Shown: piece by piece, positions 12,119 to 34,692 of the stretch
Layout: each line of letters opens with the position of its first letter
Numbering within the stretch: position 1 is the first letter of the stretch
From: a plasmid
Sequence record: NZ_CP072388.1
Strand: one strand, 5' to 3'
DNA: 64,000 nucleotides
Notes under the pieces: generated by a model
Databases searched by the model: none
What the model was told of the DNA's origin: nothing
The model's input: the letters and a program-made list of their open reading frames with translations, nothing else
Translations under genes and position numbers: made by a program

Positions 12119-12146
12119 GCGACCGCCTCGACACGCCGAGACAACA

Positions 12147-12206: not shown

Positions 12207-12220
12207 CTACCGTCGCGGCC

Positions 12221-18670: not shown

Positions 18671-18734
18671 TCCCTCCCCGCGGGGGTGCGCGTGGCTGCG
18701 CACGCCCGCGGGCCCTTGCCGAAGGACTGCCTTG

Positions 18735-19673
18735 ATGAACCCTGCCCTGATGAGGTGGGGGAGCGGGTGGGTAGCAGCGGGAACCGTGCTGCTGTTGGCT
18801 GCCTGCACCTCCACGCCACCGCCGACGCCTACCGTCACGACGCTGGCGACCCAGGACCTGCCGGACTTTGGACACGTGCACGACGTTCAGGTCACCCAGG
18901 CCGATCACACCATCTTGATCGCGACCCATACCGGGGTCTGGACCATCACCGACCCGTTCCACGACGAGCCCGGACAGCTCGAGCGGGCCGGCGAGGGCCG
19001 CCAGGACACGATGGGCATGACGGTCGCCGTCGACGGCACCGTCTACGCCTCTGGCCACCCCGCACCCGGGGAGCAGTCGGACCTCAAGACGCCCAACCTC
19101 GGGCTGATCCGCAGCACCGACGGTGCCGCGACCTGGGAGCAGGTCTCCCTCACCGGCGAAGTCGACTTCCACGCGTTGAGCACCGCGACGACCGGTGGCG
19201 GCGCCGTGCGCGTCGTCGGTCTGGACTCGGCTACCTCACGACTGCTGATCAGCGACGACTCCGGGCGAAGCTGGACGCCTGGCGCAACCGTGGAGGCCCG
19301 CGACGTGCACGTCATGGGCGCCGCCCCGGACACCATCGTGGCCACCACACCGGCGGGACTGCAGCTCAGCCGTGACGGTGGGCGGACCTTCACCGTGGAT
19401 CGGGATGCGCCGGTCCTGGCGCTCGTTGATGCCGGGCTGGGCGGGACGCTGGTCGGGATCGACCCCCAGGGCGTCGTCTGGACCGGCTCACCCGGCTCGC
19501 AGGACTGGACCGAGCACGGCACCACGCCCAGCGGTGTCCAGGCCATGACGTACGTGCCCGACGACAGCCCCGGCAACCAGCCGTGGATTCTCGTCGCCAC
19601 GGACACCGGCCTGTTCACCAGCCGTGATCTGGGTGCCAGCTGGGATCCGGTGCTCGGCCAGGAGTCCGGGTGA
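18735..19673 (+). CDS. BNR/Asp-box beta-propeller lipoprotein
   Basis: Lipobox LAAC. Four Asp-boxes (STDGAATW, SDDSGRSW, SRDGGRTF, SRDLGASW). Confidence 0.7.
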   Translation: MNPALMRWGSGWVAAGTVLLLAACTSTPPPTPTVTTLATQDLPDFGHVHDVQVTQADHTILIATHTGVWTITDPFHDEPGQLERAGEGRQDTMGMTVAVDGTVYASGHPAPGEQSDLKTPNLGLIRSTDGAATWEQVSLTGEVDFHALSTATTGGGAVRVVGLDSATSRLLISDDSGRSWTPGATVEARDVHVMGAAPDTIVATTPAGLQLSRDGGRTFTVDRDAPVLALVDAGLGGTLVGIDPQGVVWTGSPGSQDWTEHGTTPSGVQAMTYVPDDSPGNQPWILVATDTGLFTSRDLGASWDPVLGQESG

Positions 19674-19986
19674 CGCCCGGCCCGCCCGAACACCACGCGC
19701 CCGACGCACAAGACCACACCAGCCGCCCCGCCCCGACCGTGCCCGCACGGCCGGGCCCCAGGGGCATTCAAACTCCTCGCGGAACGACCCGTGAGGGATC
19801 CAAGGGGGCGCCGAGCCCTGTCACCTCTTGGAGCACACCACCAACACCCGTGACAGGGACGGGGGAACCACTCAACCGGGCACCACGGTGCCCTCGGGGT
19901 GAAGCCGCACCACAGCCACCGGCGCGGCCGGGTCACTCTCCGATCCGAACCCGACAGCTCACCCCGCAGGCGCGAAGGAGAACACC

Positions 19987-20778
19987 ATGACCGCAAGAAA
20001 CCCGGGACGTCACCGCGCGTCTCGCCGGCCCATCACGCCCCTGACCCCGATCGCGCGTGCCGCCCAGGAGGCAACGGCCAGCGCCGCCCGCAGGGGCGCC
20101 TTGCTCGCCGCCGGCTCTGGCCTGCTGGTCTCGGCATTCGCCGTACCAGCAAGCGCAGCACCGAGCACCGACCACCCCAAGGTGTCCGGCGCCGACCTGA
20201 GCGCACTGACCGAGCCGGCCCGCCAGGCGCTCAGCGCCGCACCGGCGATCACCGTCTCGGCCGACGCGTCGTTCGCGATCGAGCAGGCGCCGGTGACGGT
20301 CACCCCCGCACCGGAACCCGAGCCCGAGCCCGAGCCGGAGCCGGTGCGTCAGGAGCGCGCGACACGCAGCCAGGACCGCACGCCCACCCAGGCAGAGACC
20401 AGCACCGCGCAGGGGCAGACACCCGTCGCCGCCCCGCCGTCCGCAGCCGGCTCGAGCGTGGTCAGCGTCGCGATGCGCTACCTCGGCGTGCCCTACCAGT
20501 GGGGCGGAACCACCCCGGCCGGGTTCGACTGCTCCGGCTTCACGTCCTACGTCTACGCCCAGGTCGGCATCAACCTGCCCCGCACCTCCTCCGAGCAGCG
20601 GTACGCGGGCACCGTGATCTCCCGTGAGCAGGCACAACCCGGTGACCTGGTCTGGAGCCCGGGCCACATCGGCATCTACGCCGGGGACAACATGCAGGTC
20701 GAGGCTCCCTCGCCCGGCAAGACCGTCCGGTACGGGCCGATCTGGCAGTCCAACCCGACCTACATCCGCGTCGGATGA
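19987..20778 (+). CDS. NlpC/P60 (C40) peptidoglycan endopeptidase, secreted
   Basis: Signal peptide. GVPYQWGGTTPAGFDCSGFTSYVYAQ...GHIGIYAG catalytic Cys/His. (PE)n linker. Confidence 0.85.
   Translation: MTARNPGRHRASRRPITPLTPIARAAQEATASAARRGALLAAGSGLLVSAFAVPASAAPSTDHPKVSGADLSALTEPARQALSAAPAITVSADASFAIEQAPVTVTPAPEPEPEPEPEPVRQERATRSQDRTPTQAETSTAQGQTPVAAPPSAAGSSVVSVAMRYLGVPYQWGGTTPAGFDCSGFTSYVYAQVGINLPRTSSEQRYAGTVISREQAQPGDLVWSPGHIGIYAGDNMQVEAPSPGKTVRYGPIWQSNPTYIRVG
20311..20343. repeat. (CCCGAG)n tandem repeat encoding the PEPEPEPEPEP linker in the NlpC/P60 protein
   Basis: ccggaacccgagcccgagcccgagccggagccg. Confidence 0.5.
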
Positions 20779-20788
20779 CACGCGAAGG

Positions 20789-20811
20789 GCCCCACCAGCC
20801 TGGTGGGGCCC
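20789..20811 (+). terminator. Perfect 11-bp stem hairpin GGCCCCACCAG-c-CTGGTGGGGCC after the NlpC/P60 stop
   Basis: Reverse complement verified by eye. Ten nt after the stop codon. No U-tract, which is common in high-GC Gram-positives. Confidence 0.5.
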
Positions 20812-20820
20812 TTCACCTAC

Positions 20821-20845
20821 CCATATACCCCTAGGGGGTATATGG
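20821..20845. promoter_or_regulatory. CsoR-type operator-like palindrome CCATATACCCC-TAG-GGGGTATATGG upstream of copB
   Basis: AT-flanked C/G-tract dyad, 50 nt upstream of the ATPase start. Resembles actinobacterial CsoR boxes (ATATACCC-N-GGGTATAT). No csoR gene is present in the window. Confidence 0.45.
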
Positions 20846-20895
20846 TGGTGGATCTGATCCCGGTCCACCGGCACGAAAGGGAAAGAGGGTCGGCC

Positions 20896-23145
20896 ATGAC
20901 GTCCCAGGGGCACCACGACGAGCACGGGCCGAGCGCGGCCCACCAGCATCACGGCGACCCGCGTCTCGTCGCCGCGCGCGACAGCGCGGCGACGCATGGG
21001 TCGCCCCACCATGCTGATCACGGTGCAGGGGACACCCATCGGGAGCGCACAGGGCCCCCCGCATCGGCGCCACACAACCACGACCAGCACCACGGCGGGC
21101 ATGGCAGTGGGCACGGGGGTCATGGTGATCATGTCGGGCAGTTCCGCCGGCTGTTCTGGATCATGCTCGTTCTCGCAGTCCCGGTCGTGGCCACCTCGAG
21201 CATGTTCGCGATGGTGCTCGGGTACGAGTTGCCCGACGTGCCGGGTCTGGGCCTCATCTCACCGGTGCTCGGCACGGTGATGTACGTGTGGGGCGGGCGC
21301 CCGTTCCTCACGGGTGCCGTCTCGGAGATCCGGGCGCGCAAGCCCGGGATGATGCTGCTCGTCGGTCTGGCGATCACCGTCGCGTTCGTCGCGTCGTGGG
21401 GCGCGAGCCTGGGCCTGCTCGACCACCAGCTCGAGTTCTGGTGGGAGCTGGCGCTGTTGATCGTGATCATGCTGCTCGGCCACTGGATCGAGATGCGCTC
21501 TTTGGCGCAGACCACCTCGGCCCTGGACTCCCTGGCCGCGTTGCTGCCCGACGAGGCCGAGCGGGTCGAGGGCGACCAGGTCGTCACCGTGGCGCCCGGC
21601 GACCTGCGCGTGGGGGACGTCGTCGTGATCCGCCCCGGTGGCCGGGTGCCGGCCGACGGCGAGATCGTCGACGGCACCGCGAGCATGGACGAGTCGATGA
21701 TCACCGGCGAGTCGCGCACTGTGCGACGCAGCACCGGTGAGCCCGTCGTGGCCGGCACGGTCGCAACCGACTCGGGTCTGCGTGTCCGGGTGAGCGCGGT
21801 CGGGCAGGACACCGCGTTGGCCGGCATCCAGCGCCTGGTCACCGAGGCGCAGAGCTCCAGCTCCCGCGCCCAGCGCCTTGCCGACACCGCGGCCGGATGG
21901 CTGTTCTGGTTCGCCCTGGTCGCCGCGGTCCTCACCGCGGCGACCTGGACCCTCCTCGGGCTCCCCGATGCTGCGGTGATCCGCACCGTGACCGTCCTGG
22001 TCATCGCGTGCCCGCACGCCCTGGGCCTCGCGATCCCGCTGGTGGTGTCCATCGCGACCGAGCGCGCGGCACGCGGCGGCGTGCTCATCAAGGACCGGCT
22101 CGCGCTGGAGAGCATGCGCACCGTCGACACCGTGCTGTTCGACAAGACCGGCACACTGACCAAGGGCGAGCCCACCGTGACCGCGGTCGAGACCACCGAC
22201 GGCCACGACGCCGACGAGGTCCTTGCACTGGCCGCGGCCGCGGAGTCCGACTCCGAGCACCCGCTCGCCCGGGCCATCGTGCGCGCCGCGCACCACAAGG
22301 GCCTGCCCGTCGCACCCGCGCAGGACTTCCAGTCCTCCCCGGCCGTGGGCGTACGTGCGACCGTCTCGGGTCGCAGCATCGAGGTCGGCGGGCCCAACCT
22401 CCTGCACGAACGGTCCGCTCACGAGCTCGCGGTCGCCGATCAGTGGCGCGAGTCGGGCTCCATCATCCTGCACGTCCTCCTCGACGGGCAGGTCGCCGGG
22501 GCGCTGCGCCTGGCCGACGAGATCCGGCCAGAGTCCCGCGAGGCGGTGACCGCGCTGCACCAGCGGGGCGTGCAGGTCGTGATGATCACCGGCGATGCCG
22601 AGGCCGTGGCCGCCTCCGTCGCGCACGAGCTCGGCATCGAGCGGTACTTCGCCGGCGTGCGGCCCGAGGACAAGTCCGCCAAGGTCCAGCAGCTGCAGGA
22701 CGAAGGCCGCAAGGTCGCCATGGTCGGGGACGGGGTGAACGACGCACCCGCGCTCGCGCAGTCGGACGTCGGCATCGCGATCGGCGCCGGGACCGACGTC
22801 GCGATCGCTTCAGCCGGGGTGATCCTGGCCAGTGACGATCCTCGCTCGGTGCTGTCGGTGATCGAGCTGTCGCGCGCCAGCTACCGCAAGATGAAGCAGA
22901 ACCTGTGGTGGGCCGCCGGCTACAACCTCATCTCCGTCCCGCTCGCCGCCGGCGTGCTCGCTCCCGTCGGCTTCGTCATGCCGATGTCCGTCGGCGCCCT
23001 GCTCATGTCCGCCTCGACCGTCGTCGTCGCTCTCAACGCCCAGCTCCTGCGGCGCCTGGACCTACGCCCCGAGACCAGCACCCGGGCCATCCTCGGAGAG
23101 GCCAGCACGGGCACCGCGACCGAACGGCAGGACGCGAACGCATGA
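20896..23145 (+). CDS. copB: Copper-exporting P1B-3-type ATPase (CopB-like: His-rich N-terminus, CPH motif)
   Basis: N-terminus GHHDEHG...HQHHG...HNHDQHHGGHGSGHGGHGDH. TM6 motif IACPHALGLAIP (CPH, not CPC). DKTGTLT, GDGVNDAPAL. RBS aagggaaagaggg. Confidence 0.9.
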   Translation: MTSQGHHDEHGPSAAHQHHGDPRLVAARDSAATHGSPHHADHGAGDTHRERTGPPASAPHNHDQHHGGHGSGHGGHGDHVGQFRRLFWIMLVLAVPVVATSSMFAMVLGYELPDVPGLGLISPVLGTVMYVWGGRPFLTGAVSEIRARKPGMMLLVGLAITVAFVASWGASLGLLDHQLEFWWELALLIVIMLLGHWIEMRSLAQTTSALDSLAALLPDEAERVEGDQVVTVAPGDLRVGDVVVIRPGGRVPADGEIVDGTASMDESMITGESRTVRRSTGEPVVAGTVATDSGLRVRVSAVGQDTALAGIQRLVTEAQSSSSRAQRLADTAAGWLFWFALVAAVLTAATWTLLGLPDAAVIRTVTVLVIACPHALGLAIPLVVSIATERAARGGVLIKDRLALESMRTVDTVLFDKTGTLTKGEPTVTAVETTDGHDADEVLALAAAAESDSEHPLARAIVRAAHHKGLPVAPAQDFQSSPAVGVRATVSGRSIEVGGPNLLHERSAHELAVADQWRESGSIILHVLLDGQVAGALRLADEIRPESREAVTALHQRGVQVVMITGDAEAVAASVAHELGIERYFAGVRPEDKSAKVQQLQDEGRKVAMVGDGVNDAPALAQSDVGIAIGAGTDVAIASAGVILASDDPRSVLSVIELSRASYRKMKQNLWWAAGYNLISVPLAAGVLAPVGFVMPMSVGALLMSASTVVVALNAQLLRRLDLRPETSTRAILGEASTGTATERQDANA

Positions 23146-23846: not shown

Positions 23847-24365
23847 CTACAGGTCGATGACTTCCTCGATGAGCGGCTGGGCGCGCCGGCGCCAGTCCCC
23901 GCCCCGGGCGTATGCCCAACCGACGGCGTCGGGCACTGCGAGAAGCGGTTCCTGGGCAGCGCGCTGGTGCTGGTAGCGCAGGGTTTCGGCGCAGCCATGG
24001 GCCCGTGTGAGCGTCGCGAGTTCTCGCCGATCTCGGGCGTCGAGGGTCTCGTCGGACTCGAGACAGAGCATCATGTGACCGTCTCGGGCGATGTCGGCGA
24101 CCAGGCGGTCCAGGCAGTGACGTCGGCGGTCGAGGTCGGTCTTGAAGCCCGTCCCCGCCTGGTAGATGGTCGCTCTGAATCCGTGGCGTTCGAGCTCGGT
24201 GAGGATGACTCGGCGGCGCCCGTCTCCCTCGCTCTTCATGTGAAGCCGGCGTTGCCCCGGTAGGACGAGTGTTCGGATGGTCTTGCGCGCGGCCACGAGG
24301 TCGTGTGGTGCGACGACGCTGGCGATGAGGAGGTAGTCGCGGCTCTTCGACTCGTCGACGAACAC
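23847..24365 (-). CDS. Hypothetical protein (N-terminal MFVDES acidic motif)
   Basis: 172 aa, coding-like composition. Last gene of the minus-strand gene string. No confident domain. Confidence 0.4.
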   Translation of the reverse strand: MFVDESKSRDYLLIASVVAPHDLVAARKTIRTLVLPGQRRLHMKSEGDGRRRVILTELERHGFRATIYQAGTGFKTDLDRRRHCLDRLVADIARDGHMMLCLESDETLDARDRRELATLTRAHGCAETLRYQHQRAAQEPLLAVPDAVGWAYARGGDWRRRAQPLIEEVIDL

Positions 24366-24373
24366 GTGGCCCG

Positions 24374-25291
24374 TCAGCGCTCGGCCCTCCGCGCAGTAGT
24401 CGTTCTCAGGCGGGGGCCAGGGGCGGCACCGCGGCGCCCGGGTACTGCCGCCGAGAGAAAGCCGCGTCGACGGGCGGCGGCGACCCAGTCTCGAACCGTG
24501 GCTTCTGGACGATCGAAGTGCTGGGCGAGACGCCTGGTGAGACCGGTGCCAGCGGCGGCTTCCCTGAGGTAGGCCCGTGCCACCTCGTCGAGCAGCTCAT
24601 CGGACAGCTCGGGTCGACCTCGCCGTGTCTCGGCGGCGGCCTTGTTCGCGGATTCGAGCACTCGCACCTCCTGAGCGGTGAGCTCATCCGGGGTGCGCCA
24701 GCTGCCCATGAGGACCTGGATCCCTTCTTCACGCCAGTCGTCCTCGGCCAAGGCCTTCTGCGCTTCGGCCAGGATCAGGCCGAGCGGGATCCTCCGCAGC
24801 AGGTCGCTGGTGACGAGGGGCCGTTCGCTGTGCTGCTCCTCCTCGCTGACTTCGTCGCCCTGCACGGTCTCGTCGTCCTCGTCGTCGGTGTAGCCCCAGC
24901 GGGAGCGAAAGAGCTCGAGCTCAGCGATCTCGAGCCCGCGACCGCGGTTGATGAAGACCCCATAGACGAGCACCGGTAGCTCGACGCTCGTGTAGAGGAA
25001 GTCACTGACGTACCCCGGTCCGCGGGAGCGCTCCTTCATGTACAGCTCGAGCCGATAGCGCGGCCAGGTGGACTCGTCGTCAGGGTCGACGTCGCCAGGC
25101 TCTCGCTCACGCGCGACGTTGACGAACGACTGCTTCCACAGATCGAGGAGTTGTCGCATCCGGTCGCGGTCGTAGGACAGGTCGCGAACCAGGGGGTGAT
25201 CGGCGCGAAGGCGTCGCTCGCCTTCGGGCGCGTCCGGGTTCTCGAAGTCCTCAGCTGTGAACTCGTCCCTGGGCGCCATGCCTTCGAGCAT
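24374..25291 (-). CDS. Hypothetical protein with acidic central region and C-terminal HTH
   Basis: 305 aa. DDEDDETVQGDEVSEEE acidic stretch. C-terminal RRLAQHFDRPEATVRDWV helix-turn-helix. Confidence 0.45.
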   Translation of the reverse strand: MLEGMAPRDEFTAEDFENPDAPEGERRLRADHPLVRDLSYDRDRMRQLLDLWKQSFVNVAREREPGDVDPDDESTWPRYRLELYMKERSRGPGYVSDFLYTSVELPVLVYGVFINRGRGLEIAELELFRSRWGYTDDEDDETVQGDEVSEEEQHSERPLVTSDLLRRIPLGLILAEAQKALAEDDWREEGIQVLMGSWRTPDELTAQEVRVLESANKAAAETRRGRPELSDELLDEVARAYLREAAAGTGLTRRLAQHFDRPEATVRDWVAAARRRGFLSAAVPGRRGAAPGPRLRTTTARRAER

Positions 25292-25442
25292 AGGCGCGAC
25301 GGTCCGCGAACCATCGCGTTAAACCGTCCGACTTTCGCCGCGCGACATCTCGTACGGGTGGCGGTCGCGCGCTGCGTACGGGTGCTGGATGGCCTCTTCG
25401 TGACTCGCTAGACGCGCTCGCTGAGCTTCCGGAGATGACGGG

Positions 25443-25823
25443 TCAGCGGGACTTGAGCATGGTGATGAACTCGTCGGCCATCGCCAGCTTGGCGGCGAGA
25501 TCTGCACGGCGTTGCTCGGCGACGTCGAGGTAGGTGGTGAGCCGTCGGGGCAGTTGTGCGTCGTTGTCTCCGCTGGCGAGGCGGTCGGAGATCTCGAGCA
25601 GGTCGGCCATCTCTTCGAGGGTGAATCCGAGTGGCTTCATGCGTCGTACGACGAGCAGTCGCTGGACGTCCTTCTCGGTGTAGAGGCGGAAGCCTCCGTC
25701 GCTGCGGGCAGAGGGTGGGACGAGGCCGACCTCGTCGTAGTGGCGAAGGGTGCGTAGGGACAGGCCGGTGCGCGCCGCGACGGCGCCGATGTGCAAGGTG
25801 GCCGGTTCGCCTGGGTCGGTCAT
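25443..25823 (-). CDS. MerR-family transcriptional regulator (paralog 1)
   Basis: LHIGAVAARTGLSLRTLRHYDEVGLVPPSARSDGGFRLY. ATG overlaps the helicase stop (ATGA). Confidence 0.8.
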   Translation of the reverse strand: MTDPGEPATLHIGAVAARTGLSLRTLRHYDEVGLVPPSARSDGGFRLYTEKDVQRLLVVRRMKPLGFTLEEMADLLEISDRLASGDNDAQLPRRLTTYLDVAEQRRADLAAKLAMADEFITMLKSR

Positions 25824-27919
25824 ACGGACAGTGTCTCGTGGACGGGGTGAGTCGTCGCCAGGTCCTGTACGCGGGAGAACGGCTGCTCGTTGGGCTGGGG
25901 TTCGAGGATCTCGGGCGGCAGCGGTCGCTCGTGGAGGATGGTGAGACGGCTGACTGCTCGGGTGAGCGCGACATAGAGGTGGCGCAGCCCGACCCCGGGC
26001 CGGGAGTGCCCGCCCGTGGCCGGAGCCGCTACCACGGCGGCCGGTTCGATGACGACGACGTGGTCGTACTCGAGGCCCTTGGCGAGGTCGGCCTGGACGA
26101 GCTCGACCCGGTCGTGCGACGGGAGCACGGGGCGCAGGAGCGCGAGGTCGGCAGCGGTCGCGATGACCCCCACGAGCCCTTCCTCATCGAGCGCCGCGAG
26201 GACGGTCGCGTGAACCTCTCGGACGAGGTCGTCGGTATGGACGACGTCCGTGGTGCCGTCGGTGCGGACGGAGCGGGTGGGTGAGACCGGAACGCCGAGG
26301 TGCGGCAGGATCCGGTTGGCGAGCTCGAGCACCGTTGCCGGGACGCGGAATCCGGTCGTGAGCTCGGTGCGCTCGGCGTCGGGGCGATCCAGGTGGTGCA
26401 TCTGCGTCGGCCAGTCGCGGGCAGCCCAGGCGGTGGTGCCCTGGGCGAGGTCGCCGAGCACCGTGAGCGCCCCGGTCCGGCAGCGCCGGGCGAAGGCGCG
26501 ACACTGCATGGGGGACAGGTCCTGGGCCTCGTCGACGACGACGTGCCCGTAGGTCTGGTCGGTGTCGCGCGGGACGAGATGGGCCTGGAGCTCCTCGAGC
26601 ACGAGCGCGTCGGCCGGGCTGAACCGGAAGACACCCCCAGAGCGGCGCAAGAGCTCGGCCTCGTCGTCGGTCAGCAGGTCGGCGCAGGCGCGGGCACGGA
26701 AGTCGTCGTCCGTGTAGAGCTTGCGCAGCACCTGCTTCGCGGTGAGGCGTGGCCAGACCTGGTCGAGAGTCTGCTTGAAGCTGGGGTGACGCCGGATCTC
26801 GGCGGTGAAGCGGCTGTCCGGGGTGCGGTGATACCGCTGCTCATGCTGGAGCAGGACCTGGTGGAGGAGGGTGTGCTCGAGAGTCTTGCGCGCGCTGTTC
26901 CAGGTGCGCGACGTCGCCCGCGTGCGGTCGATCGCGCGCGAGACGTCGTCTGGTTCGAAGGTCCAGCGTGTGCCGGCGTGGGTGATGACGACCGGGTCGT
27001 GCAGCTGCCCGACGTGGCTCCAGACGGCGCGCTGGCACACGGTAGCCATGCGGGCGTCGTGCTTGATCAGCGCGGTCTGGAGCGAGTCGCTGCCGGGGGC
27101 CGAGCCCGCGCCGGTCAGGTCGTCGACGGTGGTCTGACGCACGGAGGCCTCCCCGAGGGCGGGTAGGACGGCGGAGATGTAGCGCAGGAAGCCGTCGTTG
27201 GGTCCGACGACGAGCATCGGGTGGGCGCGGAAGTGACGCGGGTAGGTGTACAGGAGCCAGGCGGCACGGTGTAGGCCGACGGCGGTCTTGCCGGTTCCAG
27301 GGGCGCCTTGGATGCATAGGGAGGCGTCGGGGCCGCGGCGGATCAGCTCGTCCTGCTCGGGCTGGATGGTCGCGACGATGTCGCGCATCGGACCGGTGCG
27401 AGGTCGTTCGATCTCGGCGGCGAGCAGATCGGAGTGCACCTCTTGGCCGCGGCGCAGGTCTTCGTCCTCGAGGCTGGTCAGGGTGGTTCCCTGGAACCCG
27501 AACCTGCGCCGGCGCAGGACCTCGAGGCGGTGGTGCGCCGAGGCACGGTAGAAGCGCTCGGCGATGGGTGCACGCCAGTCGATGACCAGGGCGGTCGAGG
27601 GGTCGTCCTCGTCGCGGACGTGGCGCCGGCCCAGGTGGTAGTCCTCGCCGGAGTCGAGCCACAGGCGGGCGAAGAACAGCGGCACGTCACGGTGCGCGAG
27701 GTCCTCCAGGCGGGTGTCGCGGTACTGCGCGATGGAGAACGCGAGGCTGTGGTCGGGCCCGGCGTCGTCGGCGTAGCGGTTCTTCTTGCCCTCGAGGTAG
27801 TCGGCCTGGAAGGTGTCGACGGCGTCGAGGGTCGCGCTGCGCATGGCGTCGATCGCGGCGCGGGCGCGGTCGTGGTGGCGGGCCTCTGACCGGAGCCTGG
27901 GGTCGTCGCTGTGGGGCAC
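25820..27919 (-). CDS. HelD-like (helicase IV / UvrD-family) RNA-polymerase-associated helicase
   Basis: Walker A GAPGTGKTAVGLHRAAWLLY. N-terminal HelD-type domain (PLFFARLWLDSGEDYHLGRRHV). C-terminal UvrD 2B/2A motifs (VVVIEPA...LYVALTRAVSRL). Start set to GTG 27919 behind ggaagg. Confidence 0.75.
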   Translation of the reverse strand: MPHSDDPRLRSEARHHDRARAAIDAMRSATLDAVDTFQADYLEGKKNRYADDAGPDHSLAFSIAQYRDTRLEDLAHRDVPLFFARLWLDSGEDYHLGRRHVRDEDDPSTALVIDWRAPIAERFYRASAHHRLEVLRRRRFGFQGTTLTSLEDEDLRRGQEVHSDLLAAEIERPRTGPMRDIVATIQPEQDELIRRGPDASLCIQGAPGTGKTAVGLHRAAWLLYTYPRHFRAHPMLVVGPNDGFLRYISAVLPALGEASVRQTTVDDLTGAGSAPGSDSLQTALIKHDARMATVCQRAVWSHVGQLHDPVVITHAGTRWTFEPDDVSRAIDRTRATSRTWNSARKTLEHTLLHQVLLQHEQRYHRTPDSRFTAEIRRHPSFKQTLDQVWPRLTAKQVLRKLYTDDDFRARACADLLTDDEAELLRRSGGVFRFSPADALVLEELQAHLVPRDTDQTYGHVVVDEAQDLSPMQCRAFARRCRTGALTVLGDLAQGTTAWAARDWPTQMHHLDRPDAERTELTTGFRVPATVLELANRILPHLGVPVSPTRSVRTDGTTDVVHTDDLVREVHATVLAALDEEGLVGVIATAADLALLRPVLPSHDRVELVQADLAKGLEYDHVVVIEPAAVVAAPATGGHSRPGVGLRHLYVALTRAVSRLTILHERPLPPEILEPQPNEQPFSRVQDLATTHPVHETLSV

Positions 27920-27975
27920 AACCTTCCTTCCGCAGTGAGCCTGATGGTGGGTGTGTGGGGGGAGGGCGGGTGGTC

Positions 27976-28518
27976 TCAGCGGCTGTGGTCGGGGCTCGTC
28001 GCGGCCGGGACGTGGTGCGGGGGGAGCGGGTGGCCGTGATCCGTCCATCGGGCTATGGCCGGGGCGTCGCAGTGCTCGCACACGAGGGTGGGTTGGCGCC
28101 CGACTTGGGAGGTGACCGAGGCACGGCCGAGGGCCAGGACGGAGCGGTAGGTGTGGCGCACGTCGGCCGACCCGCAGGTGGCGCACCGGGGGGTCTCGTC
28201 GCGCGGCCAGGTGTGCCCGCACGTGCTGCAGGTCAGCTCGATCCCGTCCGGGCCCGGGGATCCGTGCAGCGCCTCGTGCTCGCCGCACGCGGGGCAGCTG
28301 AACTCCCTGGCCACGTCAGACGCCGTGGGCAGGTCCGGCAGGTGCAGCCACAGCTCGCGCAGGTCCTTGAAGCTGCGATCGGGCAGCCGCTGCAGGGAGG
28401 CGATCACGTGCTCGCTCGCGCCGCCGTCGCGGGCATAGGCGACGAGCTCGTCGTGGGTGGCGGGTCCGTACTGGAACAGGTCGCCGACGGCGTCAGCGAG
28501 CTGCAGGCGGGTCGTCAA
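27976..28518 (-). CDS. DUF2795-like N-domain + triple zinc-ribbon protein
   Basis: YGPATHDELVAYARDGGASEHVIASLQRLPD (DUF2795 pattern), then CPACGEHE...CSTCGH, CATCGSAD, CEHCDAP. TTG start overlaps upstream stop (TTGA). Start uncertain. Confidence 0.45.
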   Translation of the reverse strand: MTTRLQLADAVGDLFQYGPATHDELVAYARDGGASEHVIASLQRLPDRSFKDLRELWLHLPDLPTASDVAREFSCPACGEHEALHGSPGPDGIELTCSTCGHTWPRDETPRCATCGSADVRHTYRSVLALGRASVTSQVGRQPTLVCEHCDAPAIARWTDHGHPLPPHHVPAATSPDHSR

Positions 28519-28934
28519 CGGGTCTCCTGCGGGGCGGGTGCGGTGAGGTCGAAGCTGCACCACACGGTCTTGGTCCGTTCGTGGGCGCGTACTCCCCAGT
28601 CCGTCGCGAGGCGCTGGACCAGGTGCAGGCCTCGCCCGCGGGGGTTGTCGGGGTCGCGTCTGGTGGGCAACGTCACGTGGGGGGAGTGGTCGCAGACGGC
28701 GAGCGTGACCACACGGTCTTCGATCGTGACCCTGATCCATGCTGGCGGGGCAGCGTGCTCGAGGGCGTTCGCGACAAGCTCGGACCCGGTCAAGATGAGT
28801 CGCGCCTGATGTGGCTCGGGCACGTCGTGGTCGTTGAGCACGGTTCGTAGCCAGGTGCGGGCTCTGGCGAGCTCGCTCAGGGAGGATCCGAGATTCAGGC
28901 GCTCGGTATGGGCGGGGCGGCGGACGAGGATCAT
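28515..28934 (-). CDS. HATPase_c anti-sigma-factor-like Ser/Thr kinase (SpoIIAB/RsbW family)
   Basis: SELVANALEHA...GRGLHLVQRLATDWGV motifs. ATGA overlap with the upstream small ORF. Confidence 0.7.
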   Translation of the reverse strand: MILVRRPAHTERLNLGSSLSELARARTWLRTVLNDHDVPEPHQARLILTGSELVANALEHAAPPAWIRVTIEDRVVTLAVCDHSPHVTLPTRRDPDNPRGRGLHLVQRLATDWGVRAHERTKTVWCSFDLTAPAPQETR

Positions 28935-29167
28935 GCGCCGGTGCCGCCGAGCACGAGTGGGCGCTCGGTGATCCAGGCGATGGCACCGGAGACCTCGTTG
29001 ACGCGGCGGGTGATCTTGACGACCTCGCGTGCGGGCACGCGGTACTGCGACCGCCACACCCCGGGTGTCTGCGGGGTCTCGAAGATGATGTCGCGGCCGT
29101 CGTCGACGGCGCGCATCGCGCTGACCTCGACGGTCTGGTGGACGGTCTCAACACGGAAGAGCGGCAT
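28931..29167 (-). CDS. Small hypothetical protein (78 aa), first gene of the operon
   Basis: Coding-like composition. Stop overlaps the HATPase start. Confidence 0.35.
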   Translation of the reverse strand: MPLFRVETVHQTVEVSAMRAVDDGRDIIFETPQTPGVWRSQYRVPAREVVKITRRVNEVSGAIAWITERPLVLGGTGA

Positions 29168-29320
29168 CTAGCCTCCTGGTTCGAGGGCGACCGAACTGTC
29201 GCACCATATCTCTACCGTTACGTGAGTGTATGCCTCTCCCGGGCTTCTGTGAAACGCCCGGATCACAGGGGTACCGTCCTCTCGTTGCGGTAGGGTGTCG
29301 TGGTCGAACGGAGAGGTGTC

Positions 29321-29737
29321 ATGGGGTTGAACCACAAGCAGATCGGTGAGGTCGCCGAGCGCACCGGTCTGTCGTTGCGCACGATCCGGTACTACGAGGA
29401 GGTCGGGCTGATCACGCCGTCGGCGCGTTCGCACGGCGGCTTTCGCCTGTACACCGAGTCCGACATCGCGCGGCTGATGCTGGTCAAGCGCATGAAGCCG
29501 CTGGACTTCTCCCTGGAGGAGATGCGCGACCTGCTCTCGGTGCTCGACGACCTCGAGCGCGACGACGTCGAGGCGTCGGTGCGCGAGGCCGGCCTAGACC
29601 GCTTGAGCATGTACGAGACGGCCGCCGAGGAGCGGTGCGCGAGTCTGCGCACGCAGCTGGAGACGGCGCAGGAGTTTGCCGGCAGCCTGCGCCGAGAGGT
29701 GCGTCGTCAGCGTCAGGTGGTGAGCCGGTCCCGGTGA
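29321..29737 (+). CDS. MerR-family transcriptional regulator (paralog 2)
   Basis: KQIGEVAERTGLSLRTIRYYEEVGLITPSARSHGGFRLY. Same domain architecture as 25443-25823. RBS ggagagg. Confidence 0.8.
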   Translation: MGLNHKQIGEVAERTGLSLRTIRYYEEVGLITPSARSHGGFRLYTESDIARLMLVKRMKPLDFSLEEMRDLLSVLDDLERDDVEASVREAGLDRLSMYETAAEERCASLRTQLETAQEFAGSLRREVRRQRQVVSRSR

Positions 29738-31326
29738 GCGCACCGACTCTGGACCTCTCGCCGGTCGAGGTGCAGGCTGCCCGCCGGCGCAGCATCGCGG
29801 TCATCTCTCACCCCGACGCGGGCAAGTCCACGCTCACCGAGGCGTTGGCGTTGCACGCGCGGGCGATCGATCACGCGGGTGCAGTGCAGGGCAAGGGCGA
29901 GCGCGCTGGCGTGGTCTCCGACTGGCTGGAGATGGAGCAGAAGCGTGGCATCTCCATCACGTCGGCCGCGCTGCAGTTCGCCTACGGCGACGTCGTGATC
30001 AACCTGCTCGACACCCCGGGGCACGCCGACTTCTCCGAGGACACCTACCGCGTGCTGACCGCGGTCGACGCCGCCGTGATGCTGCTGGACGCGGCCAAGG
30101 GGTTGGAGCCGCAGACGCTCAAGCTGTTCGAGGTGTGCCGGCGCCGCGGGGTGCCGGTCATCACGTTCGTCAACAAGTGGGACCGCCCCGGTCGTGAGGC
30201 GTTGGAGCTGTGCGACGAGCTGGAGCAGCGCATCGACCTGCGCCCGGCCCCGATCACGTGGCCGATCGGCGAGGCGGGACGCTTCCTCGGTCTGCTGGAG
30301 CGGGCGAGCGGGCAGGTGCGCACCTACCGGCGCGCGCCCGGGGGCGCGACCCTCGCCGAGGAGGACCTGCTCTCCCCGGAGGCGGCCGTCGACCAGCTGG
30401 GCCAGGACCACGTCGACGCGCTGGAGTCCGTGCAGCTTCTCGACCCGGTCGACCGTGAGTCGTTCCTGGCTGGCGTGAGCACGCCGCTGCTGTTCGGCGC
30501 GGCGCTGACCAACATCGGGGTGCGCCAGCTCTTGGACACGATCGTCGATCTCGCTCCAGCACCTGGCGCCCGACCGGGGGTCGATGGCACGTCGCGCGAG
30601 GTGAGTGAGGCGTTCAGCGGGTTCGTGTTCAAGATGCAGGCCGGGATGGATCCTCAGCATCGCGACCACGTCGCGTTCGTGCGTGTGTGCTCCGGGGTGT
30701 TCGAGCGCGGCATGGTCGTCACGCACGAGCGCACCGGTCGACCGTTCGCGACCAAGTACGCGCTGTCGGTCTTCGGGCGCGAACGCACCACTGTCGAGCA
30801 GGCCTATCCCGGGGACGTCGTCGGGCTCGTGAACGCCAGCTCGTTGGCCGTGGGCGACACGGTCTACGACGCCGTCGGCCGACCGGTGCGCTTCCCGCCC
30901 ATGCCGATCTTCGCCCCCGAGCACTTCGTTGCCGCTCGCGCGGCCGACCCGGGCCGGTCCAAGCAGTTCCGCAAGGGCATCGCCCAGCTCGAGCAGGAGG
31001 GCGTGGTCCAGGTCCTGGTCTCCGAGGCCCGCGGTGACGCCAACCCGATCCTGGCCGCCGTCGGACCGCTGCAGTTCGAGGTCGCCGCGTTCCGCATGGA
31101 GCACGAGTTCTCCGCCCCCGTCATCGTGGACCGGCTCGACCTGTCACTCGCGCGCCAGGTCGCTCCTGAGCACCTGGGTACCGTCGAGACTCACCGCGGG
31201 GTGGAGATCGCGCGCCGGGGCGACGGGACCCCGCTCGTACTGCTGCAAGACGTGTGGCACGCCCGCTCGTTCGAGCGAGCTCACCCCGACATCCCGCTGA
31301 ATCCGCTCGTCGCGAGCGGCACCTGA
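29734..31326 (+). CDS. prfC: Peptide chain release factor 3
   Basis: G1-G4 GTPase motifs (SHPDAGKST, DTPGH, NKWD). GTG overlaps the MerR stop (GTGA). Confidence 0.9.
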   Translation: MSAPTLDLSPVEVQAARRRSIAVISHPDAGKSTLTEALALHARAIDHAGAVQGKGERAGVVSDWLEMEQKRGISITSAALQFAYGDVVINLLDTPGHADFSEDTYRVLTAVDAAVMLLDAAKGLEPQTLKLFEVCRRRGVPVITFVNKWDRPGREALELCDELEQRIDLRPAPITWPIGEAGRFLGLLERASGQVRTYRRAPGGATLAEEDLLSPEAAVDQLGQDHVDALESVQLLDPVDRESFLAGVSTPLLFGAALTNIGVRQLLDTIVDLAPAPGARPGVDGTSREVSEAFSGFVFKMQAGMDPQHRDHVAFVRVCSGVFERGMVVTHERTGRPFATKYALSVFGRERTTVEQAYPGDVVGLVNASSLAVGDTVYDAVGRPVRFPPMPIFAPEHFVAARAADPGRSKQFRKGIAQLEQEGVVQVLVSEARGDANPILAAVGPLQFEVAAFRMEHEFSAPVIVDRLDLSLARQVAPEHLGTVETHRGVEIARRGDGTPLVLLQDVWHARSFERAHPDIPLNPLVASGT

Positions 31327-31399: not shown

Positions 31400-32665
31400 A
31401 TGGTCGTCTACGCCTCGATCGCCCTCGCGGCGACCGGGCCGGGACAGACCGTCGGCATCTCGTTGTTCATCGACCCGCTCATCGCCGACCTGGGCATGTC
31501 CCGGTCGACGGTCTCGACCGCGTACCTGGTCGGCACGCTCGCCGGGGCGGTCGTGCTGCCCTGGATCGGCCGGGGGCTGGACCGTCACGGCGTGCGACGG
31601 ACCCTGACCGTGATCGGCGTCGCGTTCGGCGCCATGCTTGTCGGCCTGTCGTTCGTCAGCTCGATCGCCGGGCTGACGGCCGGCTTCGTCGGGGTGCGCA
31701 TGGCCGGGCAGGGCGCACTGGGACTGACCGCGACGACCGCCGTCGCCCTGTGGTTCGACCGGCGCCGCGGCCTGGCCACCGGCATCGTCTCCGCCGTGGG
31801 TGCCGTCGGCATCTCCGCAACCCCGCTGCTGCTCGAGGGCCTGATCGCCCAGCACGGCTGGCGCACCGCCTGGCTCGTCGAAGGACTGGCGGTCTGGGCC
31901 GTCGTGCTGCCCCTGGCGCTGTTCGCCATGCGGGACCGTCCCGACGTTCTCGGCCAACGCCCCGACGGGGCCGTGCCCCCCTCGGACGGCGCCGACCTGG
32001 CGCGGCGCAGCGGGCTGACCCGAGCCGAGACGGTGCGTCACCCGTACTTCTGGCTGGTCGCCAGCGCCGTCGCGGTCTCCGGCATGCTGACCACCGCCGT
32101 CTCCTTCCACCAGATCAGCCTGCTGACCTCGCGCGGCCTGTCGCCCACCCAGGCGGCGGCCAACTTCATCCCGCAGACCGTCGCCGGGCTCCTCGCGACC
32201 CTCGCCACCGGCTACCTCATCGACCGGTTCGCGCCCCGCTGGATGACCGTGGGATCCATGGTGTCCCTCGCCCTGGCCCTGTGGTGGGGCACGCACGTCA
32301 GCCCTGGCTGGTCCGCCGTGCTCTTCGGCGCCCTGCTGGGCATCGCCGGCAACATGATCCGCGCCGTCGAGGCCGCCACCTTGCCCCGCTACTTCGGCAC
32401 CCGGCACATCGGAGCGATCCGCGGCCTGGTGGCCTCCATCAGTGTCGGCGGCACGGCCTGCGGCCCGCTGCTGTTCGCCGCCGTCTTCGACCACCTCGAC
32501 AGCTACACCCCCGCCCTGCTCGTCACCGCGGCGATCCCTATCGCCATCGCGATCTGGGCCCTAGTTGCGCCCGAACCCGACCCGCGTCGGTGGCCCAGGC
32601 GCCGGTGGCGTCCGTCACGTCCAGCCACTGAGAAGGCCCCCGAGCCAAACCTGCCCTCACGTTAG
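31400..32665 (+). CDS. MFS transporter
   Basis: 12 predicted TM helices, typical MFS loop motifs. An upstream alternative start is possible. Confidence 0.7.
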   Translation: MVVYASIALAATGPGQTVGISLFIDPLIADLGMSRSTVSTAYLVGTLAGAVVLPWIGRGLDRHGVRRTLTVIGVAFGAMLVGLSFVSSIAGLTAGFVGVRMAGQGALGLTATTAVALWFDRRRGLATGIVSAVGAVGISATPLLLEGLIAQHGWRTAWLVEGLAVWAVVLPLALFAMRDRPDVLGQRPDGAVPPSDGADLARRSGLTRAETVRHPYFWLVASAVAVSGMLTTAVSFHQISLLTSRGLSPTQAAANFIPQTVAGLLATLATGYLIDRFAPRWMTVGSMVSLALALWWGTHVSPGWSAVLFGALLGIAGNMIRAVEAATLPRYFGTRHIGAIRGLVASISVGGTACGPLLFAAVFDHLDSYTPALLVTAAIPIAIAIWALVAPEPDPRRWPRRRWRPSRPATEKAPEPNLPSR

Positions 32666-32837
32666 GGTAGAGTTATCGGCGGCTCGGTCCTTCCCTTCTT
32701 CCCGCTTTCGGGAGGGCCGAAGCCATCCACTCTTCCCCGTGCGCAGCGTCGCGTGCCCTTGTCCTGTCCATCCCCGGACCCGGTCACGTGATCTGGTCCT
32801 CGGGGCGTGCGCGCCCCTGACCTCGAAGGAACGCTGC

Positions 32838-34391
32838 GTGTCGAACGACGTCCGCGCCACCCTGCCCGATCCCGCCCCCACGCCTCAGCCCGTCACCGGT
32901 GCGCCCGAGGCGGACGAGTCCTACTCCGTGCTCGCTGCCCTGAAGTCCCCGCGCCGCCTGAAGACCGAGGTGCTCGCCGGGCTCGTCGTCGCTCTCGCGC
33001 TCATCCCCGAGGCGATCGCGTTCTCGATCATCGCCGGCGTCGACCCCCGGATCGGCCTGTTCGCCTCCTTCACGATGGCGGTCTCGATCGCCTTCCTCGG
33101 CGGGCGTCCCGCGATGATCTCCGCCGCGACCGGAGCGATCGCGCTCGTCATCGCGCCCGTCGCGCGCGAGCACGGCGTCGACTACTTCATCGCCACCGTG
33201 ATCCTCGCGGGCGTCATCCAGGTCGCCCTCGGTCTGCTCGGTGTCGCGAAGATCATGCGGTTCATCCCGCGCTCGGTCATGGTCGGGTTCGTCAACGCTC
33301 TGGCGATTCTCATCTTCCTCTCGCAGGTCCCGCACCTGCAGGACGTGCCGTGGATGGTCTACCCGCTGGTCGCCGTCGGCATCGCGATCATGGTCCTCAT
33401 GCCTCGCTGGACGAAGGTCGTCCCGGCTCCGCTCGTCGCGATCGTGCTGCTGACCGCCGCGACGGTGACGGCGGCCATCAACGTCCCGACGGTGGGCGAC
33501 GAGGGCGAGCTGCCCGACTCGCTGCCCTCGCTGTTCTTCCCGAACGTGCCGCTGACCCTCGAGACGCTGCAGATCATCGCGCCGTTCGCGCTCGCCATGG
33601 CGCTGGTCGGGATCCTCGAGTCGCTGCTCACGGCCAAGCTCGTCGACGACGTGACCGACACGCACTCGAACAAGACGCGCGAGGCCTGGGGGCAGGGCGC
33701 CGCGAACGTCATCACCGGGTTCTTCGGCGGCATGGGCGGCTGCGCCATGATCGGCCAGACCATGATCAACGTGAAGGCCTCCGGTGCGCGCACGCGCATC
33801 TCGACGTTCCTCGCCGGGGTGTTCCTGCTGATCCTCGTCGTCGGGCTCGGCGACGTCGTCGCGATCATCCCCATGGCCGCGCTGGTGGCCGTGATGATCA
33901 TGGTCGCGATCGGCACCTTCGACTGGCACTCCGTGCAGTTCGGCACTCTCAAGCGGATGCCGAAGTCCGAGACCGCCGTCATGCTCGCCACCGTCATCGT
34001 GACGGTGTGGACGCACAACCTGGCGTACGGCGTGATCGTCGGCGTCCTGGTCGCGATGGTCCTCTTCGCCCGCCGCGTCGCGCACTTCACGACCGTCACC
34101 CGCCTGGACGCATCCGACGCGGACAACCAGCGCGTCTACGCGGTCGAGGGCGAGCTGTTCTTCGCCTCCTCCAACGACCTCGTCTACCAGTTCGACTACG
34201 CCGGCGACCCGAAGCAGATCGTGATCGACATGACCAAGGCCCACGTCTGGGACGCCTCCACCGTCGCGACCCTCGACGCGATCCGCACGAAGTACGCGGC
34301 CAAGGGCAAGACCGTCACCATCGTCGGCGCCAACCCCGACACCACCGAACGCCTCGACCGGCTCGCCGGCAAGCTCGGCGCCGGACACTGA
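32838..34391 (+). CDS. SulP-family anion permease with C-terminal STAS domain
   Basis: LIPEAIAFSIIAGV SulP signature. STAS tail. GTG 32838 behind gaagga. Confidence 0.85.
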   Translation: MSNDVRATLPDPAPTPQPVTGAPEADESYSVLAALKSPRRLKTEVLAGLVVALALIPEAIAFSIIAGVDPRIGLFASFTMAVSIAFLGGRPAMISAATGAIALVIAPVAREHGVDYFIATVILAGVIQVALGLLGVAKIMRFIPRSVMVGFVNALAILIFLSQVPHLQDVPWMVYPLVAVGIAIMVLMPRWTKVVPAPLVAIVLLTAATVTAAINVPTVGDEGELPDSLPSLFFPNVPLTLETLQIIAPFALAMALVGILESLLTAKLVDDVTDTHSNKTREAWGQGAANVITGFFGGMGGCAMIGQTMINVKASGARTRISTFLAGVFLLILVVGLGDVVAIIPMAALVAVMIMVAIGTFDWHSVQFGTLKRMPKSETAVMLATVIVTVWTHNLAYGVIVGVLVAMVLFARRVAHFTTVTRLDASDADNQRVYAVEGELFFASSNDLVYQFDYAGDPKQIVIDMTKAHVWDASTVATLDAIRTKYAAKGKTVTIVGANPDTTERLDRLAGKLGAGH

Positions 34392-34422: not shown

Positions 34423-34692
34423 ATGCACTGCTACGACTGCACCCAGATGAGCCTGGACACCCCCGCCGTCGCAACCTGCTCCAGCTGCGGCGCCGCAACG
34501 TGCGGCCCCCATACGCTGGAGTCCGCAACTACGCAGACCGTCACTACGATGGGAAACCCCACGGCGCGTACCGTCAGGACGTTGACCTGCACGAGCTGCG
34601 CGCCGCGCGAGGCCACCTCGACCATCCACCGCGCCAGCGGGCGCGCGCACGCCGGACTCCACGAGCACGTCACCGTCGCTCGCACACACTGA
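34423..34692 (+). CDS. DUF2180-family zinc-ribbon protein
   Basis: MHCYDCTQ...CSSCGAATCGPH pattern. A paralog lies at 49399. Confidence 0.5.
   Translation: MHCYDCTQMSLDTPAVATCSSCGAATCGPHTLESATTQTVTTMGNPTARTVRTLTCTSCAPREATSTIHRASGRAHAGLHEHVTVARTH

Follow-up and report, generated by a model that had tools for sequence, protein, structure and literature searches.

A predicted MerR-type regulon of recycling factors, including a HelD-family ATPase, on a Cellulosimicrobium plasmid

HelD releases stalled RNA polymerase (reviewed in PMC8501993 and PMC10719064), and it was recognised recently that HelD and HelR offer a route to RNA-polymerase recycling and to intrinsic rifamycin resistance. Such resistance has been published for some class II HelDs (10.1101/2021.05.10.443488; PMC10719064), and in Bacillus subtilis the RNase J1 "torpedo" and HelD provide parallel routes for the removal of stalled RNA polymerase (PMC8501993). 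The control of HelD/HelR expression is an unsolved question of prime interest, as the factor that binds the rifamycin-associated element (RAE), the palindrome of HelR, is still missing (PMC10719064); RAE is the only such element that the HelD reviews discuss. A dyad operator situated in the promoter spacer is the geometry of MerR-family regulators (Brown et al. 2003, as cited in PMC11481915). Here we analyse a 64,000-nucleotide stretch of high-GC plasmid DNA (sequence record NZ_CP072388.1, hereafter the window), in which seven minus-strand genes, g1 to g7, occupy positions 23,847 to 29,167. Among them, g4 codes for a HelD-family ATPase and g5 for a MerR-family regulator (Table 1). We describe a palindromic element that precedes g1 and two neighbouring operons, and compare the locus with its relatives in other actinobacteria.

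A palindrome shared by three operons

We consider it probable, if far from assured, that g1 to g5 constitute one transcription unit of a three-operon island under a shared operator, CTACCCTnACGTnAGGGTAG, on a Cellulosimicrobium plasmid, and that this island is a MerR-type regulon of recycling factors. The operator is a palindrome of ~20 bp that runs into a TAGAGT-like −10 hexamer. Its copy in front of g1 reads CATACACTCACGTAACGGTAGAGATAT; a weaker copy precedes a divergently transcribed MerR gene, and the strongest, CCTGCCCTCACGTTAGGGTAGAGTTAT, precedes the gene of a SulP-family transporter (Table 1). As judged from gene order in related loci, the conserved unit is wider than the earlier note had it: the SulP-RNase J operon and the divergent operon of MerR, RF3 (peptide chain release factor 3) and MFS also belong to it.

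An alignment of the g1/MerR intergenic regions from three loci revealed an invariant core, ACGTAAnGGTAGA. The pattern CGTWNSGGTAGRG has three exact matches in the window compared with 0.02 expected by shuffling, and all three are intergenic and located 5' of the three units (g1, 29210–29222, minus; MerR, 29283–29295, plus; SulP, 32660–32672, plus). The SulP site turned up in the pattern search and had no part in defining the pattern. A scan with a position weight matrix (PWM) found 40 sites in 11 related loci, whereas 153 loci (~2.3 Mb) of more distant HelD paralogs with 41–47% identity gave no site at these thresholds. The consensus of the 40 sites is cCTACccTCACGTtAgGGTAGAgT. The element is a dyad with the arms cCTACccTCAC and GTtAgGGTAGAgT, in which a mean of 6.65 of 10 arm positions are complementary, and the right arm ends in a TANNNT hexamer (TAGACT, TAGAGT, TAGGGT and others) at 33 sites out of 40. 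The −10-like hexamer is preceded at 17–19 nt by a weak −35-like one (TTCAAC, TTCGAC, TTTCAG or TGTGAC). The sole sigma-70-like match between positions 23600 and 29800 of the window, TTCACA-17-TACACT (29253–29225), coincides with the g1 element. A sigma-B/F-type promoter (GTTT-N15-GGGTA) was rejected as an explanation of the element: there is no GTTT at the right distance, and the conservation of the left arm identifies the element as a dyad.

The element also accompanies HelD itself. Within the HelD clade to which g4 belongs (at least 55% identity), seven loci (L001, L081, L083, L088, L090, L093 and L173) show a separate copy 75–120 nt 5' of HelD. In two others, the window and L174, HelD stands at the end of the g1-DUF2795 operon and has no element of its own; the 56-nt gap between g3 and g4 contains no operator (best PWM score −6). 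In addition, the element precedes g1-like/DUF2795 operons, MerR-RF3(-MFS) operons, SulP, an otsA-DUF2795-zinc-ribbon operon and an ADP-ribosylglycohydrolase gene.

A dyad extending over the promoter spacer and −10 hexamer, next to a MerR gene, is the signature of MerR-type control. MerR orthologs (57–83% identity) adjoin the element in every island locus and, given this arrangement, they are likely to be its binders. They consist of a helix-turn-helix (HTH) domain and a coiled-coil dimerisation helix and stop after the second helix. In the window, g5 and the divergent MerR are paralogs with 57% identity. The g5 protein matches MerR_1 with 64.9 bits, in agreement with its first annotation as a MerR regulator, and MerR-DNA-bind with 35 bits, and it contains no Cys. 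Both MerR proteins miss all curated NCBIfam MerR subfamily cut-offs. The half-site CTCACGT is one that we take to resemble the tipA operator.

The packing of the genes is consistent with a common transcript. All seven open reading frames (ORFs) described in an earlier note on this DNA are present, as are the stop/start overlaps it pointed out (ATGA at 28931–34, TTGA at 28515–18 and ATGA at 25820–23), and g2 is translationally coupled to g1 and to g3 by 4-nt overlaps. The g1, g3 and g4 gene models equal the database proteins P0123, P0121 and P0001, respectively, with 100% identity and 100% coverage. The GC content at third codon positions is of the coding type in all seven ORFs (0.80–0.93). Besides the g3–g4 gap, there are gaps of ~150 nt between g5 and g6 and of 8 nt between g6 and g7. 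A terminator search by RNA folding gave no significant structure in the g3–g4 gap (z = +0.5), in the g5–g6 gap (z = +1.0) or 3' of g7 (z = −0.7), so that the operon boundaries are drawn only from spacing and conservation, from which we infer the co-transcription of g1 to g5.

Recurrence of the island in other actinobacteria

Among the 80 HelD loci listed from a scan of GTDB genomes, none contains homologs of g1–g3, an apparent refutation of a conserved neighbourhood. However, 78 of these loci belong to other HelD clades (41–47% identity to g4), with only two clade members among the matches listed, and single exact-protein look-ups of the closest relatives overturned the refutation. A HelD scan of metagenomes yielded five clade members among the 80 loci listed. 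The window region itself recurs nearly unchanged: the g4 protein is identical to P0001, annotated on a 146-kb Cellulosimicrobium cellulans plasmid contig, and two more contigs, L086 and L087, carry the region at 99.95–99.99% identity.

HelD recurs together with the small proteins and MerR in L081, L088, L090, L093, L173 and L174, the last of which repeats the window layout without the HATPase gene. The neighbourhood of HelD, HATPase and DUF2795 suggested at the outset therefore stands for HelD, the small proteins and MerR; the HATPase gene is limited to the window and one other locus, L085, where the ~2.4 kb from the zinc-ribbon gene to the contig end contain no HelD. In most loci (L088, L089, L174) the g1 and DUF2795 genes adjoin and overlap each other, and RNase J lies next to or near HelD in L081, L088, L090 and L174. 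The islands of relatives add OtsA, ADP-ribosylglycohydrolase and extra DUF2795 genes.

This recurrence bears on the simplest alternative, namely that functionally unconnected genes, each common on its own, were juxtaposed by chance on a mosaic metal-resistance plasmid. The window is indeed mosaic, with a Tn402/Tn5053-like tniA/tniB pair, two resolvases, merA, merB and a P-type ATPase gene; g6 and g7 are unrelated passengers; and none of the 80 listed GTDB loci has g1–g3 homologs. Yet the same genes occur together in at least eight other loci, in varying order and with the same palindrome before each unit, and nearly all of the listed GTDB loci represent other clades of HelD, as noted above. 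The conserved element and the synteny largely refute chance juxtaposition, which we consider very unlikely. By these comparisons, the linkage of HelD with a MerR regulator and with the small proteins encoded upstream is not random. The tie between HelD and MerR that the earlier note had singled out is thus borne out by its recurrence in independent actinobacterial loci, where it is marked by the shared palindromic promoter element.

A conserved protein of ~235 amino acids with a faint spermidine-synthase-like match occurs inside the island of four related loci, its copies having 47–57% identity to one another (Table 1). The L083 copy is located between MerR and HelD, and the window has none. 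In L088 and L081 the small neighbour of RNase J is a DUF2795 protein, where the window has the 89-aa Cys-rich ORF between SulP and RNase J.

The two remaining genes of the string, which had been proposed as part of the operon, do not belong to it. No operator was found 5' of g6 or g7, no homologs of either occur in the related island loci, and both recur elsewhere instead. The g7 gene recurs on 86 actinobacterial plasmids, small mycobacterial ones included, and g6 on 12 plasmids of Streptomyces, Rhodococcus and Mycobacterium; in two Rhodococcus qingshengii plasmid records g6 lies close to the record start. By these distributions g6–g7 is a separate plasmid cassette, unrelated to the g1–g5 unit, which may serve plasmid maintenance or defence. 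A conserved two-gene cassette was considered and rejected, as the gene upstream of the Rathayibacter g7 homolog is not homologous to g6 and each examined copy of g7 has a different upstream partner. The 172-aa ORF of g7 exists as first described; its start codon is GTG, and the product, first listed as the MFVDES protein, is DUF3800-like.

The HelD-family protein and its small companions

The initial assignment of g4 to the HelD type holds. The protein aligns with Mycobacterium smegmatis HelD (6yxu_H) with an E-value of 1.6e-67 in two colinear stretches (query 77–414 on chain 66–421), and the alignment covers the HelD-specific N-terminal region. The SF1 motifs GAPGTGKT (Walker A) and VVVDEAQD (Walker B) are both invariant across 21 aligned clade members, and the NCBI name of the relatives is "HelD family protein". 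The NCBIfam scores are 329 bits for HelR_2, 267 bits for a second HelR model and 299 bits (E = 5e-89) for HelD_MYCSM, all far below the curated cut-offs (1100 and 750 bits for the HelR models and 1051 bits for the HelD_MYCSM equivalog). By its HelD_MYCSM score, g4 is a HelD-family member without being orthologous to the M. smegmatis protein. On this evidence g4 is a class II, actinobacterial HelD, yet probably not HelR.

It could still be argued that g4 is a HelR-type determinant, induced by rifamycin, which displaces rifamycins from RNA polymerase: the HelR models are its best NCBIfam matches, it shares class II with M. smegmatis HelD and HelR, and rifamycin resistance has been published for some members of this class (10.1101/2021.05.10.443488; PMC10719064). 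We find this unlikely, given the distance to the HelR cut-offs, the 41–47% identity of g4 to the RAE-associated paralogs in the fetched loci, and the regulatory sequences. The RAE core CCGGnCGGAAACCGGnCGG was recovered from 29 of 74 Streptomyces-type HelR loci, where RAE is readable as GCCGnCGnCCGGnCGGAAACCGGnCGGC, 80–380 nt 5' of the start of the HelD match (loci L003–L080, e.g. L015, L026 and L057); RAE from these paralog loci was used as the negative control for the palindrome described here. Around g4 there is no RAE: the window's best matches have 2–3 mismatches and lie elsewhere, at chance level, and the g4 clade has another palindrome instead. The possibility that the palindrome is RAE itself was rejected, since the RAE core is a different sequence.

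A defence role was also considered, in which g4 would be a UvrD-like helicase akin to GajB of Gabija and g5 a mad1-like regulator of an anti-phage system. PADLOC gives partial GajB matches for g4 (best 1.1e-10) and a mad1 match for g5 (9.3e-14), and the L174 island adjoins NACHT and Wadjet-like genes. However, the GajB matches span only 40–110 residues of generic UvrD motifs, whereas the HelD matches have E-values of 1e-67 to 1e-98 and cover the N-terminal half specific to HelD. A GajA-like nuclease is missing, and the regulon comprises RF3, RNase J, OtsA and transporters and no defence effectors. We regard the GajB and mad1 matches as generic domain matches, not defence genes, and an anti-phage function as highly implausible.

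Of the small proteins upstream of HelD, g1 has no family match in Pfam, NCBIfam, PADLOC or PHROGs, and its AlphaFold2 (AF2) model is a confident small barrel of seven strands (predicted local distance difference test score, pLDDT, 84). The g2 protein had been read as a SpoIIAB/RsbW-type serine kinase. It shares with RsbW and SpoIIAB the HATPase_c_2 domain (46.9 bits against a Pfam cut-off of 27.4, 3.5e-12; also phrog_12354, 2e-20), a similar size of 139 amino acids, the N box (SELVANALEHA) and the G2 box (GRGL), so that the domain assignment stands. It differs from them in a degenerate G1 box, in which DxGxG is replaced by DH(S/A)P (CDHSPH in the window, HDHAPQ in L085), in lacking an adjacent gene for a STAS antagonist or a sigma factor, and in its presence in only two of the related loci. 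Its sole homolog there, in L085, has 44–46% identity. Since the HATPase gene lies between g1 and DUF2795 only in the window and L085, it is, by its distribution, a lineage-specific insertion.

These observations weigh on a partner-switching or anti-sigma module, in which g2 would sequester a sigma factor or phosphorylate a partner and thereby gate the activity or expression of HelD. The score of g2 above the family cut-off, its intact N and G2 boxes and its translational coupling to g1 and g3 speak for such a module, and so does the STAS domain, the usual partner fold, that SulP of this regulon carries. That SulP C-terminus, in the neighbouring unit, is the sole STAS domain: neither a sigma-factor gene nor a free STAS gene was found in the operon or in the scanned regions of the window. 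Furthermore, the G1 box is replaced in both homologs, L085 has its HATPase without HelD beside it, and seven loci (L081, L088, L089, L090, L093, L173 and L174) contain g1 and/or DUF2795 genes and no HATPase, all but L089 with HelD in the fetched sequence. We therefore find a partner-switching role for g2 rather doubtful, and the comparisons do not support a dedicated kinase/anti-sigma module wired to HelD.

The g3 protein matches DUF2795 (PF11387) with 38.8 bits (cut-off 25) over residues 19–57, as had been noted; its four CxxC motifs (8 Cys) correspond to two Cys4 zinc ribbons and not the three initially counted. In the AF2 model the DUF2795 part is helical (pLDDT 82–93 at residues 11–60 and 68 at residues 1–10), and the zinc-ribbon part has pLDDT below 50. 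Foldseek with this model returned nothing at E < 0.2, sequence searches of the PDB with g3, g6 and g7 found nothing significant, and a word-based search with g3 found only g3 itself and one homolog. An exhaustive HMMER search with the zinc-ribbon half matched ~130 cluster representatives, mostly proteins of 100–130 amino acids or the N-terminus of proteins of 220–300 amino acids. The two halves of g3 are separate adjacent genes in L085, L081 and L090. In L090 (7374–8414) and L081 (5350–6391) the two ORFs are in frame and split by one stop codon and ~20 nt; in L085 their reading frames differ, and in L173 the zinc-ribbon half stands alone directly 5' of HelD with no adjoining DUF2795 gene. The single ORF in the window, compared with the split arrangement, could reflect gene fusion or stop-codon read-through.

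In the neighbouring operons, the RF3 assignment passes the equivalog cut-offs of NCBIfam (PRK00741, 582 bits against 473; prfC, 515 bits against 467). Covariation in the hairpin of the SulP leader is weak, with compensatory changes in 4 of 18 pairs among four sequences. Farther away, the window contains a mercury-resistance transposon region (2687–12802), an unusually long tRNA gene in an odd location and a single Rfam match, a riboswitch (Table 1).

Table 1. Features of the window and gene layouts of related HelD-clade and island loci (percentages in the layouts are identities to the window proteins)
Sequence	Feature	Position	Strand	Description
Window	g1	28931–29167	minus	78 aa; small all-beta (Sm/SH3-like barrel); first gene of operon; AGGAGG ribosome-binding site 5'
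Window	g2	28515–28934	minus	139 aa; HATPase_c_2 (RsbW/SpoIIAB-like)
Window	g3	27976–28518	minus	180 aa; TTG start; DUF2795 (residues 1–65) fused to double Cys4 zinc ribbon (residues 70–175)
Window	g4	25820–27919	minus	699 aa; GTG start; class II HelD-family RNA-polymerase recycling ATPase; clade without RAE
Window	g5	25443–25823	minus	126 aa; MerR-family regulator
Window	g6	24374–25291	minus	305 aa; HTH-like region at C-terminus
Window	g7	23847–24365	minus	172 aa; DUF3800-like
Window	Operator/promoter of g1 operon	29206–29232	minus	PWM 36–38; right arm enters TAGAGA(T) −10-like hexamer
Window	Operator 5' of divergent MerR	29273–29299	plus	PWM 19–22; same position in L085, L081, L088, L089, L090, L174
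Window	Operator 5' of SulP	32650–32676	plus	PWM 40; kept 5' of SulP in L085, L081, L089, L090, L093, L174
Window	Divergent MerR	29321–29737	plus	138 aa; MerR_1 66.1 bits, MerR-DNA-bind 31 bits; candidate operator binder
Window	RF3	29734–31326	plus	prfC-type GTPase; start overlaps MerR stop codon
Window	MFS transporter	31400–32665	plus	third gene of MerR-RF3 operon, from gene tables
Window	SulP leader	32677–32837	plus	~160 nt, from operator/−10 hexamer to SulP start codon; GC-rich hairpin partly kept in L085, L081, L089
Window	SulP-family transporter	32838–34391	plus	C-terminal STAS; Pfam Sulfate_transp 4.6e-51, STAS 5.1e-10
Window	Cys-rich small protein	34423–34692	plus	89 aa; three CxxC motifs, from translation; weak DUF2180 match
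Window	RNase J	34812–36497	plus	Pfam RNase_J_b_CASP 7.8e-47
Window	Mu-type transposase and TniB	2687–5346		mercury-resistance transposon region
Window	tRNA-Val(cac)	6496–6582	minus	87 nt (ARAGORN); between tniB-type gene and resolvase
Window	Two resolvases	6702–7334, 12161–12802		mercury-resistance transposon region
Window	MerA-like reductase	7710–9389		mercury-resistance transposon region
Window	MerB alkylmercury lyase	9313–10110		mercury-resistance transposon region
Window	Second pyridine-nucleotide disulfide oxidoreductase	10340–11704	minus	mercury-resistance transposon region
Window	Cyclic di-AMP (ydaO-type) riboswitch	19829–19987	plus	54.4 bits (gathering score 38); directly 5' of NlpC/P60 gene
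Window	NlpC/P60 cell-wall hydrolase	~19987–20778
Window	Heavy-metal P-type ATPase	20803–23145	plus	long His-rich N-terminal extension; adjoins g7 end
L085, metagenome	Layout			RNase J-SulP-MFS-RF3-MerR, divergent from g1 (63%)-HATPase (46%)-DUF2795 (58%)-zinc ribbon (61%)
L081, Nocardioides pakistanensis	Layout			MerR-RF3-MFS-SulP, divergent from g1-like-DUF2795
L081, a few kb away	Layout			HelD(-DUF2795)-RNase J-PAP2, divergent from otsA-DUF2795-zinc-ribbon protein-ADP-ribosylglycohydrolase
L088, L090, metagenomes	Layout			as L081
L089, metagenome	Layout			g1/DUF2795 and MerR-RF3-MFS-SulP units; HelD elsewhere on same 48-kb contig
L093, metagenome	Layout			DUF2795, MerR, zinc-ribbon protein, RF3, SulP, then HelD
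L173, Phytoactinopolyspora halotolerans	Layout			MerR-RF3-117-aa double zinc ribbon (48% to C-terminal half of g3)-HelD
L174, metagenome-assembled genome	Layout			MerR-RF3-MFS-SulP, divergent from close-packed g1-like-DUF2795-262 aa-HelD
L174	NACHT ATPase and Wadjet-like (JetD, SbcC-type) genes	15076–22010		adjoin the island; defence-island neighbourhood
L083, Blastococcus	Layout			MerR-236 aa-HelD
L083	~235-aa protein	763–1473
L093	~235-aa protein	1816–2523
L174	~235-aa protein	2727–3434
L089	~235-aa protein	4043–4753

A possible recovery regulon and its relation to known systems

The operator fills the promoter spacer and overlaps the TAGAGT-type −10 hexamer, as would be expected for a MerR-family target. 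We infer that the divergent MerR and its paralog g5 bind it, and that the two together would set the expression of three units: g1-HATPase-DUF2795::zinc-ribbon-HelD-MerR2, MerR-RF3-MFS, and SulP/STAS-Cys-rich ORF-RNase J. The products of the island would recycle or clear the machinery of gene expression. HelD would release stalled RNA polymerase, RNase J would degrade the RNA, possibly as a "torpedo" acting on stalled complexes, and RF3 would recycle release factors. The small beta-barrel, DUF2795 and zinc-ribbon proteins may be accessory factors that contact HelD or RNA polymerase. The combination of HelD, RNase J and RF3, joined in relatives by OtsA and ADP-ribosylglycohydrolase, suggests a stress or recovery regulon for stalled transcription and translation.

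Several observations weigh against this interpretation. The −35 hexamer is poorly conserved and the spacer is readable as 17–19 bp, which leaves the classic MerR spacer of 19–20 bp unestablished. The PWM was built from sites in the same loci, so that the scores of its founding sites are circular. In five loci of the HelD clade HelD stands alone, with no island and no element or only a weak one (L082, Georgenia alba; L172, Haloactinopolyspora alba; L002, Glycomyces; L091 and L092). The source organisms of L081, L088 and L090 may be close relatives, which makes the independent observations fewer than the loci. The MerR proteins have no obvious sensor, as neither a conserved Cys or His nor a C-terminal ligand domain was found among eight orthologs. 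Finally, gene content is the sole basis of the stress or recovery role.

Going further, we tentatively speculate that the palindrome and its MerR define an unrecognised actinobacterial regulon for the recovery of stalled gene-expression machinery, that g1, DUF2795 and the double zinc ribbon are new cofactors of RNA polymerase or HelD, and that DNA topology or a partner protein (g1, g2 and DUF2795 being possible candidates), not a small ligand, relays the signal to the sensor-less MerR. This is a possibility to which we give less credence than to the operator and island as such. If true, it would provide the first function for DUF2795 and the first regulator for any class II HelD. In the searchable literature, queries with DUF2795, the motif strings and HelD together with MerR returned no description of the arrangement, subscription journals being outside their scope.

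The island provides a clade of HelD with a distinct, well-defined cis-element and a candidate regulator beside it, which makes the question of HelD control directly testable. The grouping of HelD, RNase J and RF3 suggests that stalled complexes of transcription and of translation are cleared in a coordinated manner, and the island offers a genomic context, hence testable partners, for three uncharacterised families (DUF2795, the double zinc ribbon and the small beta-barrel). Its location on a plasmid beside genes for resistance to mercury and other metals points to a mobile module.

Compared with HelD of M. smegmatis (MSMEG_2174, PDB 6yxu) and HelR of Streptomyces venezuelae and M. abscessus, g4 belongs to the same protein family, shares the SF1 Walker A and B motifs, and, as a class II HelD, would be expected to bind RNA polymerase and free it from nucleic acids. 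As with HelR, a conserved palindrome lies 5' of the gene and is common to other genes presumed to act in the same response. The palindromes differ, however, CTACCCTnACGTnAGGGTAG replacing the CCGGnCGGAAACCGGnCGG of RAE, and that of the g4 clade overlies the −10 hexamer whereas RAE lies downstream of the transcription start site. The predicted co-regulated set comprises RF3, RNase J and the DUF2795 and zinc-ribbon proteins, in contrast to the rifamycin-inactivating enzymes of the HelR set, and a candidate regulator is encoded beside g4 whereas the RAE-binding factor is yet to be found (PMC10719064). In relation to B. subtilis, the presumed common control of RNase J and HelD would fit their shared role in clearing stalled transcription complexes; no linkage or co-regulation of the two genes is reported there, and here the link is genomic only and extends to RF3 and the small proteins. 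Finally, the island resembles the systems of the MerR-family activators (MerR, CueR, SoxR, BmrR and TipAL) in the N-terminal HTH and coiled-coil dimerisation helix of its regulators, in the divergent and probably autoregulated layout, and in the ~20-bp dyad between the −35 and −10 regions. It differs from them in the lack of conserved metal-binding Cys/His residues or a C-terminal ligand domain and in a spacer of ambiguous length (readable as 17–19 bp). Whereas those activators serve efflux and detoxification genes, the MerRs described here would control a multi-operon set of transcription and translation factors.

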